This document shows positions 32,503-37,632 of a stretch of 64,000 nucleotides of DNA, piece after piece. The stretch lies in NCBI GenBank assembly GCA_004376575.1, contig SOJN01000046.1, positions 48,709 to 112,708 of the forward strand, given 5' to 3'. The notes beneath the pieces are model-generated. The model saw only the letters and a list, made by a program, of their open reading frames with translations, made no database searches and was not told where the DNA came from. Position numbers and translations under genes: made by a program. The DNA is from a candidate division TA06 bacterium. GTDB taxonomy: Bacteria > Hydrothermota > DG-26 > E44-bin18. The stretch's first letter is position 1. Each line of letters opens with the position of its first letter.

Positions 32503-35500
32503 CTAGGCCAGAGGGGAAGCTCTTCTGAACTCTTCTCTGGCGACTGAATGCTTTTTCATCAGCCTTTGAAGCTGCTGCCTGTGGATTCCCAGTTCCTTCG
32601 CTGCTCTTGTAACATTGCCTCGGGTTCTGACAAGTGCTTCGAGTATCCTCTTCTTTTCCGTGTCGTGCTTCAGTTCCTTTAGCTGGAGACCGGTCGTTTC
32701 CCTGCCAAAGAGGGGGTAGAGGTCTTCTGTGTCTATCCTATCAGATTTTGTCATCACCACTGCACGTTCGATGCAGTTCTCGAGTTCGCGGACATTGCCG
32801 GGCCAGTCGTAGTCCAAAAGACAGCTCATCGCCTCCTTGCTAATTCCCTCAAGCCTCTTGCCTGTTCTGTCTCGGTAGACCTTAAGAAAGTGCTCTGTAA
32901 GCAGAGGAATGTCCTTCTTTCGTTCTCTCAGCGGGGGAATGGAGATGGATATTACGTTGAGCCTGTAGAAGAGATCTTCTCTGAATCTACCCTTGTTCAC
33001 TTCTTCTGGGAGCCTTCTATTTGTTGCACAGATGACTCGCACGTCAACCTTTCTTTGTTCAGTATCTCCCACCCGCCTCGTTTCTCCTTCTTCTATCACT
33101 CTAAGTAACTTTGACTGCACGGCCAGTGGAGCATCGCCAATCTCATCAAGGAAGATTGTTCCCCCGTCAGCGTTTTCAAAGAGGCCCTTTTCGTCACTCA
33201 CCGCGCCTGTGAAGCTGCCTTTCTTGTGACCGAAGAGTTCTGATTCGAGGAGCGGTTCCGGCAAGGCGCTTACCACAACAGTGACGAAATTCTTATTCGC
33301 TCTTTCACTGGAGTAGTGTATTGCCCTGGCGACCAGTTCCTTTCCGGTGCCTGTTTCACCGAGTATGAGAATATTCGACTCTGACTTGGCCACTCTCTCA
33401 ATCAAGTCGTACAGATTCTTCATCTGTTCCGTGGCGCCAATCAGGTTTCTGAAGTGGTACTTCCTCTTCACTTCCAATCTCAAGTAGTCCCGTTCAGCGT
33501 GCAGCTCTCGGTGGTGCTTTGAGTTTTCGATGGCCACGGCTATGAGGTTTGCCAGGGATTCCAGGAACAGTTCGTCCTCTTTCCCAAACAGGTGAGGGGA
33601 GATCCGGCTATCTACGTAAATCGTACCAGTCACTCTATCTCTTATCATAAGGGGGACGCAGAGCAAGGACTTGATTCTGTGGTTGAGGACCGATTTGGAT
33701 CTGCTGAATCTGGAGTCAACCAGGGCATTGCCACTCATTACGGGTTTTCTTCTATTCGCGACTCTGTTCAACACTGAGGTAGAAATCTGCGAGGCATCCT
33801 CTATGGTCGTGCTGTCTATCTCTCGTCCAGCAGCAACCTTTAGCTCTCCAGTTGTCTCATCTACCAGCATGAGGACTCCCCTCTCAGCCTCGAGCAGGTG
33901 GATGACCAGGTCTATCACTCGGTTGAGGAGTTCATCGAGATTCAATATTGAGTTTATTATCTCACTTACCTCGTATATGGTTTTCAACTGGTCTTCCCGA
34001 GTTGAGGGTGCCAGGGACTCAGAGGAGAGCTTTTCCACAAGATCCACGCTCGCCTCATGCACATGTTCCAGATCTCTTTTTGCATTCAGATCCCTGAATA
34101 TACCCTCTGCGTCTTTAAGATAGGAACATGCGGCGCTGAACTCATCGTTCTTTCTGCTTTTTCTCCAGAGGGATATCTTCCATTTTCCCGCTTCAAGGAG
34201 TGCTCTGCCGAGGTCATATCTTTTGCCTAAGCCTGACAAGCCCTGTATCGCTCTGTTGAATTGGTCATCAGCTACCAGCTCATCCCCTTCTGCTACTGCT
34301 AACTGAGCAAGGGCAAGATGTGTGTTTGCAATCTGTGCCGGGTCGTCCACTTCAACAGACAACTGAAGTGCCTCCTCCCCGGATTTCCTAGCATTCTCCA
34401 GATCCCCCTTGGCTGTGTAGACCTCTGCAAGGAGACTCTTTATGATAGACAGCCTCTCGGTGGCACCTCTGGCCTCACTGATTTCAAGACTCCTTTTCAG
34501 GCAGTTCAGGGCCTTCTTCCAATGGAAAGCCTCCCTGTGGAAGTAACCGAGGTCGAGGAGTACGGAGGCCTGTGCAAGAGGATCGCCAAGCCTTTCGGTC
34601 AACGTCAGAGCCCTCTTCAACCTGCTCTCAGCCTCTTCCATATTCCCCAGCCTCAGATGGAGAGTGCCTGCATCCCTGAGGCATGTGGCGAGGTTGGACT
34701 GCTGTCCCACCTGCTCGAACATCGAACTACCCTTCTCAACGAACGATAATGCTTCTTGCCATCTCCCCTGGCGGTCGGCCACAGCGCCCATGTTCATGTA
34801 CAGCTGGCCAAGCACGCTCCTGTCATTCAGTCTCTCAAAAACATTAAGGGACTCCCTGAGATGGGCCGCAGCGTCATCCCAGGAACCTTTCTGCATCTCC
34901 ACAAGGCCAATGTTGTTGTGTGCGCGAGCAACGCCAGCAATATCACCCACCTTTTCCATTATTGTGAGGCTTTGTGCATAACTTTCGATGGCCTTATCGT
35001 ACATCCGTTTGTTCCAGTAGAGTATTCCCAGATTATTGTGAGAACTTGCCATCCCTTTAGCATCATTCAGTTCCTCTTTCATGCGCAGGCTTTTCAGGTT
35101 ACATTCTATTGCCTTCTCAAAATTCTCTCTGCTCGACTTGATGAGACCAAGTACGTGGTAAACACGGGAGAGCCCACGCTTGTCTTCAATCTCCTCGGCA
35201 ACGCGAAGGGCTTGGTGCGCTGATTCTTCTGCCTTGTCATATTCGTCAAATGCTAAGTAGGTGAGCGCCAGTTCGCTGAGAACAGTGACCCTGTCAGTGT
35301 TTTTGTCTTCAGGGATTGCCTTGATAGCAGATTTGAAGATAGCCAGGGCCTCCTCTTTGTTCCCCTTTCTGATGTGAGCCTGGCCGATTTTCAAACTGAT
35401 TCTGGGTGAGGCGGACCTGAAGGAGATAATCTGGTTATATGCATTGAGAGCCTCATCGTACTGTCCCAGTGTTCTGTACAGGTCTCCCACAGCCTCAAGA

Positions 35501-37632: not shown

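Follow-up and report, generated by a model that had tools for sequence, protein, structure and literature searches.

In STAND ATPases, an inducer that binds the sensor and arm brings about the exchange of ADP for ATP, upon which the nucleotide-binding core (NOD) opens and multimerizes (PMC4381067, PMC6468293). Ser/Thr kinases are listed as a bacterial STAND class in both of these sources, and PknK of Mycobacterium tuberculosis is named as a STAND kinase (PMC4381067) with a MalT-like C terminus (PMC1262709). The kinase that phosphorylates AfsR, AfsK, is a protein of its own (PMC1262709), and cyanobacterial "dual protein kinases" of the HstK type, in which a Ser/Thr kinase, a GAF domain, and a His kinase follow one another, have been described (PMC2176072). 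Here, we analyze a 64,000-nucleotide (nt) stretch of contig SOJN01000046.1 from a candidate division TA06 bacterium (below, the window, to which all coordinates refer), in which one gene encodes a 1709-amino-acid (aa) protein that joins a kinase and a STAND core to a complete sigma-54 activator. The family to which it belongs thus has three signaling engines on one chain: a Hanks kinase, a STAND switch, and a sigma-54 AAA+ motor.

Neither a signal nor a target is known for PknK-type STAND kinases of bacteria or for most "orphan" sigma-54 activators. For the subfamily described here, the wiring can now be tested through a 15-bp operator, a sigma-54 promoter, and a conserved tiny peptide gene. 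We favor, with moderate confidence and on the basis of sequence comparison, the interpretation that the protein is a soluble one-component regulator, a STAND-gated sigma-54 activator that acts on the promoter adjacent to its own gene.

Architecture of the kinase-STAND-sigma-54 protein

The gene (32503 to 37632, minus strand) is one uninterrupted open reading frame (ORF) with zero internal stops. It starts with GTG, in the place of which the orthologue at locus L002 has ATG, and a purine-rich ribosome-binding site (RBS) lies ahead of the start. The identical protein is present in NCBI (TET46699.1; UniRef100_A0A523UWG7; candidate division TA06 bacterium), where it is called merely a "tetratricopeptide repeat protein," a label that can now be corrected to kinase-STAND-sigma-54 activator. 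The initial annotation, made from the DNA alone, had proposed the order Hanks kinase, STAND NTPase, tetratricopeptide repeats (TPRs), GAF, sigma-54 AAA+, and helix-turn-helix (HTH). Pfam bears this out, with Pkinase, AAA_16, TPR families (~716 to 1170, including TPR_MalT), GAF, Sigma54_activat, AAA_lid_14, and HTH_8 matching in that order, so that from N to C terminus the protein consists of the kinase, a STAND NOD and arm, a TPR sensor, GAF, the sigma-54 AAA+ domain, and a Fis-type HTH. All of the motifs that had been quoted (ALKL, HCDLKPQN, DFGLA, GERGSGKS, GETGTGKE, and GSFTGA) are present. The estimate of about 600 aa of TPR was roughly right, in that the repeats cover ~530 aa (residues ~666 to 1199 in an AlphaFold2 model) and are preceded by ~225 aa of winged helix and arm. 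Hydropathy analysis found no membrane segment in the 1709-aa protein, which is therefore predicted to be cytoplasmic.

All parts of the protein have been kept by purifying selection, as indicated by ratios of nonsynonymous to synonymous substitution (dN/dS) of 0.01 to 0.17 in every domain. In comparison with an orthologue that is 87% identical, dN/dS was 0.11 for the kinase, 0.17 for the NOD, 0.13 for the arm, 0.16 for the TPR sensor, 0.01 for GAF, and 0.06 for both the AAA+ domain and the HTH. Constraint is far the strongest on the GAF domain, which has 99% aa identity to that of the same orthologue.

The sigma-54 module is complete. Sigma54_activat matched over its full model (aa 1397 to 1563; 4e-74), followed by AAA_lid_14 (aa 1569 to 1643), with GETGTGKE at aa 1425, GSFTGA at 1472, FLDEI at 1494, RVICAT at 1532, and GNVREL at 1612; Walker A, Walker B, the R-finger, and sensor II are intact. 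The GSFTGA variant of the GAFTGA loop keeps the F and the T and is also found in 9 of 52 fusion homologues and in one neighboring activator, and the loop is presumably functional in contacting sigma-54. Assignment to the NifA, NorR, or PEP-CTERM regulator families was rejected because the scores fell under the curated cutoffs; the NifA equivalog (NCBIfam TIGR01817), for example, gave 424.4 bits over aa 1214 to 1639 against a cutoff of 528.85.

In the middle of the protein, the STAND core has an intact Walker A (the P-loop GERGSGKS, at aa 312) and an intact Walker B (VLVIED). We built an AlphaFold2 model of residues 263 to 1200 on a 41-sequence alignment, with a mean pLDDT of 90.1 and a pTM of 0.83. 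The best Foldseek match of this model in the PDB was 6MFV, the Pyrococcus PH0952 STAND ATPase with a TPR sensor (756 columns; E = 1e-16), and it also matched the folds of 8BOB (MalT) and 1HZ4. A model of residues 1 to 1200 gave a pLDDT of 89.1 and a pTM of 0.84, with a disordered activation loop. The structural features of STAND proteins are found, namely, a NOD (P-loop nucleotide-binding domain, helical domain, and winged helix), an arm and repeat sensor C-terminal to it, and effectors at the ends; AfsR also matches the protein in sequence. In the model, the middle part folds as a STAND module of the MalT/PH0952 type.

At the N terminus, the kinase has ALKL with K36, HCDLKPQN at aa 123, and DFGLA at aa 146, and its closest solved relatives are StkP and PknB (E of ~1e-41). 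In family alignments, K36, E53, D125, N130, D146, APE 169-171, and R247 are invariant or nearly so, and degeneration of the catalytic residues, which had been named as a reason for doubt, is not seen. Of the 120 homologues listed, we aligned 116 over their N-terminal 420 aa; 76 of these 116 also carry the sigma-54 module. K36, E53, D125, N130, and D146 are intact here and in 67 of these 76, the other 9 having lost a catalytic residue while keeping the domain. The residue before the catalytic Asp is Cys (HCD), which makes this a non-RD kinase rather than one of the RD class, a point that the initial annotation had overlooked. Just 13 of the 76 fusions have the HRD Arg, compared with 26 among 40 sister proteins that lack the sigma-54 module (Fisher p = 4e-7, relatedness being ignored), the fusions mostly having HGD, HCD, HND, HLD, or HYD where the sisters mostly have HRD. 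The same bias was found among representatives at 50% identity, and the kinases of sigma-54 fusions are therefore mostly of the non-RD type. Non-RD kinases are generally independent of activation-loop phosphorylation.

The kinase may act chiefly in cis, autophosphorylating the linkers or the GAF and AAA+ domains, or serving as a dimerization scaffold, and so set the activity of the activator rather than modify separate substrates. The loss of the HRD Arg from up to 63 of the 76 fusions, the richness of the linkers in Ser and Thr, and the 9 homologues in which the domain outlived a catalytic residue are all consistent with this idea. However, the catalytic core is strictly conserved in the TA06 clade, where the dN/dS of 0.11 argues for catalysis rather than scaffolding, phosphosites cannot be called from sequence, and the receiver-type activator encoded next to the gene, with which it is probably co-transcribed, is an equally plausible substrate in trans. 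We therefore regard an action chiefly in cis as possible but doubtful.

Palindromes and a sigma-54 promoter 3' of the gene

The 1-kb gap 3' of the gene contains, on the same strand and in this order, a palindrome, a sigma-70-type promoter, a 53-aa ORF, a second palindrome, a hairpin, a sigma-54-type promoter, and an 86-aa ORF (Table 1); no known RNA was found in it. All of these elements are kept at the orthologous loci L001 and L002, the latter of which is saturated at synonymous sites relative to the window. The initial annotation had passed over both the DNA sites and the 53-aa peptide gene. The 86-aa ORF has only six close relatives and occurs only in close TA06 relatives. The perfect palindrome GCAAC-N5-GTTGC occurs exactly twice in the 64-kb window versus 0.06 expected, and it occurs twice, in the same positions, at L001, L002, and L092 as well.

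Four sigma-54 activators are encoded in the window. They have different recognition helices, each conserved among orthologues, and LGIHRQQLQR is found only in the fusion protein. Since conservation of the helices alone could not discriminate among the four, we assigned the palindrome through distant lineages. The fusions P0008 (loci L083 and L108) and P0007 (L089, L090, and L109) are 36% identical to the window protein and have the same helix. On the 3' side of their genes, a one-mismatch and a perfect palindrome lie 52 to 55 bp apart, with a perfect TGGCACAAAAATTGCA promoter 81 bp further on, and at L083 no other activator gene was found within 17 kb. P0127 (43% identity, same helix) served as an out-of-sample test; its two palindromes and its sigma-54 promoter are all perfect, and a small ORF is present as well. 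Furthermore, a metagenome scan for the helix peptide revealed a separate family of sigma-54 activators of ~435 aa that lack a kinase, and at 13 of 15 of their loci, palindromes of the GCAAC/GTTGC type (at most one mismatch) follow the stop codon and precede a sigma-54-type promoter (two copies ~64 bp apart at 10 loci and a single copy at 3). As background, ~950 kb of sequence from unrelated loci gave a single stray match to the GCAAC palindrome. Taken together, the RQQLQR helix, GCAAC-N5-GTTGC pairs, and a sigma-54 promoter co-occur in five groups, and this repeated association across distant lineages indicates that it is the fusion protein, and not its neighbors, that is predicted to bind both palindromes. 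The promoter at 31869 to 31854 is most likely the one that it activates.

The ~435-aa activators (L094 to L104, L106, and L107) carry the helix as LGIHRQQLQRK, with a promoter of the form TGGCAT-N5-TTGCA; at L103, this promoter drives a gene for a 422-aa multipass membrane protein, followed by one for a universal-stress-like protein.

The fusion P0023 (L086), which has a different helix, is followed by a different palindrome, TTGACAC-N10-GTGTCAA, before a downstream sigma-54 promoter. With its own palindrome in the same arrangement, this locus suggests that the layout of activator gene, operator, sigma-54 promoter, and target may be general for the family. At L086 (11330 to 11495), the palindrome is accompanied by a third TTGACAC, and a sigma-54-type promoter and a STAS_2 gene follow.

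The initial annotation had proposed that kinase and NTP switch are coupled to RpoN-dependent transcription, and this proposal is supported by the intact motifs, the purifying selection, the STAND fold, and the adjoining sigma-54 promoter with its palindromes. In the mechanism that we envisage, an inducer would bind to the TPR sensor, and ADP/ATP exchange would make the STAND core multimerize. Multimerization would raise the local concentration of AAA+ domains until an active ring forms on the enhancer, and it would also juxtapose the kinase domains for phosphorylation. As in NifA, NorR, and FhlA, the GAF domain would provide a second input, one that is probably inhibitory. With the RQQLQR helix on the two palindromes, the ring would act on the 31869-31854 promoter and so switch on the 86-aa ORF. 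Such a system makes three questions directly accessible, namely, whether STAND multimerization can replace receiver phosphorylation in assembling the ring of an activator, what role falls to a non-RD kinase in bacteria, and whether the peptide described below is a signal or a product.

Several observations weigh against this interpretation. The NOD Walker A motif is lost in many myxobacterial-type members of the family (the HGDLKPAN group), so the STAND switch is not essential to every member. The two palindromes of the TA06 clade have a spacing of 412 nt, compared with 52 to 55 nt in other lineages, and they flank a peptide gene with a sigma-70-like promoter, so the regulatory logic there may differ. 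The activator could also act elsewhere, given that several other sigma-54 promoters lie within 25 kb. Finally, rpoN is not in the 64-kb window, and its presence in the genome is implied by the four activator genes and by the enrichment of -24/-12 sites. TGGCAC-N5-TTGCW (at most one mismatch) was matched 12 times versus 2.3 ± 1.3 expected, a count reached in 0 of 100 shuffles, and 10 of the 12 matches lie between 31.8 and 55 kb, mostly intergenic and correctly oriented. By this enrichment, the region is a predicted sigma-54 regulatory hub.

Table 1. Features of the fusion gene, its 3' gap, and the adjoining activator gene (window coordinates).
Feature	Position	Strand	Remarks
Whole gene, kinase-STAND-TPR-GAF-sigma54 activator, 1709 aa	32503..37632	-	= NCBI TET46699.1
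Hanks-type Ser/Thr kinase, aa 7-251	36880..37614	-	Pfam Pkinase 4e-46
STAND nucleotide-binding domain, AAA_16, aa 283-440	36313..36786	-	Pfam 3e-29; Walker A GERGSGKS, Walker B VLVIED
Helices, winged helix, and arm of STAND module, aa ~441-665	35638..36312	-	AlphaFold2 secondary structure and fold matches
TPR sensor, aa ~666-1199, ~13 helical hairpins	34036..35637	-	
GAF domain, aa 1231-1369	33526..33942	-	Pfam 3e-17 (aa 1231-1368)
Sigma-54 AAA+ domain and lid, aa 1397-1643	32704..33444	-	GETGTGKE, GSFTGA, FLDEI, RVICAT, GNVREL
Fis-type HTH, aa 1657-1694, recognition helix LGIHRQQLQR	32551..32664	-	HTH_8 2e-11
Palindrome site 1, GCAACCGTCTGTTGC	32464..32478	.	Perfect GCAAC-N5-GTTGC; starts 24 nt past stop codon; candidate enhancer (upstream activating sequence)
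Sigma-70-like promoter, TTGACA-N18-TACAAT, before peptide gene	32359..32388	-	Near-consensus; conserved in orthologues
Small ORF; 53 aa with GTG as start, 52 aa with the TTG at the next codon	32128..32289	-	Signal-peptide-like N terminus, Pro-rich tail ...GPVTPMPLPDPGD
Palindrome site 2, GCAACAAATAGTTGC	32037..32051	.	Perfect; 167 nt upstream of sigma-54 promoter
Terminator-like hairpin between peptide gene and sigma-54 promoter	31973..31985	-	Consensus scan only
Sigma-54-type promoter, TGGCATATTTCTTGCT	31854..31869	-	GG-N10-GC core conserved in orthologues
86-aa ORF behind sigma-54 promoter	31520..31780	-	No known domain
Receiver-domain sigma-54 activator upstream of fusion gene	37718..39178	-	85-nt gap

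A Pro-rich peptide gene beside the receptor gene

The 53-aa ORF between the palindromes is preceded by a strong RBS. At every RQQLQR or RRQLQR locus examined, an RBS-preceded small ORF with a P[LI]PxP[PG] core begins 194 to 374 nt past the receptor stop codon. The core reads ...QPLPLPAPPQ at L002 and ...VPLPIPAPPA at L092, the tails at L083 and L089 are ...EEIPLPAPPRFAGGN and ...EEMPIPAPPRTLGG, the 66-aa ORF at L110 contains ...DEPMPIPSPE..., and the ORFs at L091 and L111 encode MIGTTPFPIPPMPGPVTPPPC and MFGVFVPPPPLPCPPK. The candidate mature peptide of the window ORF is GPPTPVGSGPVTPMPLPDPGD, and the candidate peptide of the P0007 homologue is ATTREEMPIPAPPRTLGG. These loci represent five receptor lineages with mutual identities of 31 to 43% where measured; the N terminus of the small ORF is basic-hydrophobic and signal-peptide-like in three of them, and the ORF is leaderless (16 and 21 aa) in two. 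In a control set of 275 one-kb segments, an ORF with this core was found in 2, one being the window's own peptide. None was found 3' of five more distant fusions with other helices. By these comparisons, the peptide gene is a conserved partner of the RQQLQR/RRQLQR receptor subfamily.

The promoters of the peptide gene differ among lineages. In P0007/P0008 and P0127, the peptide ORF lies directly behind the palindromes and a perfect sigma-54 promoter. In the TA06 clade, by contrast, a sigma-70-like promoter precedes it, and it is the clade-specific 86-aa ORF that is served by the sigma-54 promoter. The peptide would be either a direct regulated target or a signal sensed by the TPR domain. A role for the polyproline ORF as a translational leader or attenuator is unlikely, the next called genes at L083, L089, and L111 being on the opposite strand and the ORF at L111 being followed by a terminator.

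Radical SAM/SPASM-type enzymes often modify peptides. One such enzyme is encoded at 22887 to 23900 (plus strand), inside a glycosyltransferase cluster; the distance between it and the Pro-rich peptide gene is 8.5 kb, and no connection of the two is established.

If the peptide were the signal, the adjacent Pro-rich peptide would be the inducer bound by the TPR sensor, making a receptor-propeptide unit built on a STAND sigma-54 activator, with the peptide autoinduced from a sigma-54 promoter in some lineages and constitutive, from the sigma-70-like promoter, in the TA06 clade. The adjacency of a core-bearing ORF in five lineages, against a background of 2 in 275, and its position behind palindromes and a perfect sigma-54 promoter in P0007/P0008 and P0127 would fit such a loop. 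The leaderless versions of 16 and 21 aa could meet a cytoplasmic receptor directly, and in fold the TPR sensor is similar to the TPRs with which Rap, NprR, PlcR, AimR, and LGN bind peptides. However, that resemblance is to a generic fold, an exported peptide would have to be reimported across two membranes with no transporter seen nearby, the peptide is missing beside the five more distant fusions, and its adjacency is equally well explained if it is a mere regulated product. On balance, we consider peptide sensing unlikely.

At its fullest, this idea would amount to a new peptide-signaling circuit of diderm candidate phyla, in which a P[LI]PxPP peptide encoded ~200 to 370 nt 3' of the receptor gene acts on the TPR sensor, the STAND core multimerizes, an AAA+ ring forms on GCAAC-N5-GTTGC, and the kinase fires, with autoinduction in some lineages. 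We offer this chain of events as a speculative and rather improbable proposal. If it is true, a PknK-type STAND kinase would for the first time have a candidate ligand, and one ATPase switch would gate another within a single receptor.

Neighborhood, family, and comparison with known systems

Upstream of the fusion gene, no terminator was predicted between it and the receiver-domain activator gene at 37718 to 39178, and the two are probably co-transcribed. The longest ORF of this activator is 486 aa, whereas both orthologues are 458 aa long, which probably places the true start 28 codons into that ORF. Beyond it, again on the same strand, lie a DUF5678/aspartyl-protease pair, genes for a GAF histidine kinase and a single-domain receiver, and the gene of a second receiver-type activator; a third neighboring activator gene is transcribed divergently.

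The regulatory island as a whole (37718 to 49864) contains three sigma-54 activators besides the fusion protein, two with a receiver and one without (GAYTGA loop), all with distinct HTH helices, together with the GAF histidine kinase and three single-domain receivers. Between 37.7 and 46.4 kb, L001 and L002 have the same gene order. The pair at 39718 to 40484 (minus strand), between the histidine kinase and receiver-type activator genes, consists of two ORFs, one for a retropepsin-like aspartyl protease (149 aa) and one for a DUF5678 protein (106 aa). It is followed by two small ORFs of ~66 to 77 aa, and L001 and L002 have the same set with two 66-aa ORFs. Perfect sigma-54 sites are found at 42899 to 42884 (minus strand), before a receiver and histidine kinase operon, and at 49980 to 49995 (plus strand). 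Near-identical sites, TGGCACA[CG]TTATTGAT, at 50513 and 54943 precede genes for secreted Laminin_G and FG-GAP proteins.

Converging on the island is a complete exopolysaccharide cluster of the Wzx/Wzy type (9941 to 31515, plus strand; ~22 kb) that ends with an Omp85/POTRA gene. Its genes include Poly_export/Wza, Wzz-GNVR-AAA_31 (Wzc-like), the CpsB phosphatase, seven GT4 glycosyltransferases (one fused to GT9), and Wzy_C, as well as the radical SAM/SPASM enzyme, a GFO oxidoreductase, Bac_transf, NTP_transf_4, and ROK. L001 and L002 share the downstream part of the cluster, which runs from the last glycosyltransferases to Omp85. On the other side, predicted secreted proteins with a C-terminal FlgD_ig domain, possibly a sorting domain, are encoded at 47617 to 63509 (plus strand), among them a 1625-aa peptidase C25 (gingipain-like) protein (58632 to 63509, plus strand).

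STAND proteins of the Avs- or NLR-like type defend against phage, and the kinase could in principle be the effector of such a protein. In PADLOC, kinase-containing candidates (PD-T4-6, mad6, and MkoA) and RtcR-type activators matched the protein, but each matched single domains, with no defense architecture or partner genes and no match at the system level. The C-terminal half is instead a full sigma-54 activator, for which both a cognate DNA site and a promoter are predicted, and the neighborhood consists of conserved two-component and exopolysaccharide genes rather than a variable defense island. A defense function is thus very improbable, and we reject it.

The initial annotation had called such fusions rare, a view that the databases contradict. 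The sigma-54 module lies downstream of the kinase in 76 of 116 aligned proteins (from the best 120 clusters at 90% identity), and many of these homologues, 1550 to 1800 aa long, align over 95 to 100% of the query at 25 to 36% identity. An exhaustive HMMER search with the C-terminal 1200 aa against 1.84 billion representatives at 50% identity led to a similar picture. When the best 150 matches, the last of which still scored 434 bits, were scored with domain hidden Markov models from the family alignment, 94 had the order kinase-NOD-GAF-sigma54 and 4 more had kinase-GAF-sigma54, so that at least 98 of the 150 clusters combine the kinase with the sigma-54 module. Source names of the fusions include TA06, Eisenbacteria, Deltaproteobacteria, Polyangia, and Myxococcales; these organism names are source labels only, a profile scan of genome contigs having been dominated by generic sigma-54 activators. 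Sister proteins keep kinase-NOD-TPR(-GAF) and have the output swapped for His kinase, PAS, GGDEF, SpoIIE, or none. This pattern places the protein with PknK and HstK, and on sequence grounds it is the sigma-54 output form of a modular PknK/HstK-type kinase-STAND family that is common and already in databases.

No universal gene partner of the fusions was found, the neighborhoods of six distant homologues being different. Surface-polysaccharide genes recur near fusion genes in the TA06 clade, the Eisenbacteria homologue, and P0023, and glycan genes also lie beside some distant homologues (L085 and L086), a partial recurrence on which we do not rely.

The window protein belongs to a sequence cluster that is also found on a 173,773-bp JGI contig and a 129,005-bp NCBI contig. 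Orthologues of 1709, 1709, 1709, and 1707 aa occur at 89, 87, 67, and 65% identity on other ENA, NCBI, and JGI contigs. Two of these loci, those at 87 and 67%, were examined and have the same genes as the window to either side. Base composition is uniform along the gene. The suspicion that a very long ORF from a metagenome-assembled source might be a chimeric assembly or hide a frameshift, so that no such fusion exists in the cell, found nothing in its favor and is effectively refuted by the 1707- to 1709-aa orthologues on independent ENA, NCBI, JGI, and Logan contigs (65 to 100% identity), by the conserved flanks, uniform composition, and purifying selection on all domains, and by more than 90 distant clusters with the same end-to-end order, full-length alignments spanning 99% of the query at 25 to 36% identity.

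A limited literature search found no description of a kinase-STAND-sigma-54 fusion. Fusions of a kinase to a sigma-54 activator are reportedly mentioned in the work of Schneiker in 2007 on the Sorangium cellulosum genome and in that of Perez in 2008 on the myxobacterial kinome. What appears to be new here is the helix-palindrome association, the ORF with a P[LI]PxPP core in five lineages, and the non-RD bias of the fusions.

Among known systems, the RRNPP cassettes (Rap/Phr, NprR/NprX, PlcR/PapR, and AimR/AimP) share with the present loci a small ORF that adjoins the gene of a TPR transcription-factor receptor, here in five lineages. They differ in phyla, receptor architecture, sigma factor, and the Pro-rich type of the peptide, two of the fusion lineages are leaderless, and the receptor likeness extends only to the generic TPR fold. 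We therefore see in them a functional analogy only, and not membership.

The C-terminal ~500 aa resemble the NifA/FhlA/NorR class in aligning end to end with the NifA model (GAF, an AAA+ domain with a GAFTGA-type loop, and a Fis HTH). Unlike NifA, the protein scores below the cutoff and has 1200 aa of kinase and STAND before the GAF domain, and there are no nif genes in the window. HstK-type proteins have the same N-terminal module and a GAF domain, but their output is a histidine kinase that feeds a response regulator, whereas the output here would be sigma-54 activation.

With MalT, PH0952, and AfsR, the protein shares a NOD-arm-TPR core and a DNA-binding effector on one chain. The effectors of those proteins are LuxR, ArsR, or SARP domains that work on sigma-70 polymerase, whereas the effector here is a second oligomerizing ATPase, the sigma-54 AAA+ domain, with a kinase in addition. 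In comparison with the AfsR/AfsK pair, kinase and STAND factor are on one polypeptide. The closest likeness in order is to PknK and its relatives among the STAND kinases, which match the N-terminal 1200 aa domain for domain (Hanks kinase, STAND NOD, arm, and TPR), and both NCBI and JGI give the name PknK to fragments or relatives of the fusion. PknK ends after its MalT-like region and affects transcription indirectly, by phosphorylating a regulator. The fusion protein differs from it in having a non-RD kinase and in adding a full activator of GAF, sigma-54 AAA+, and HTH domains.

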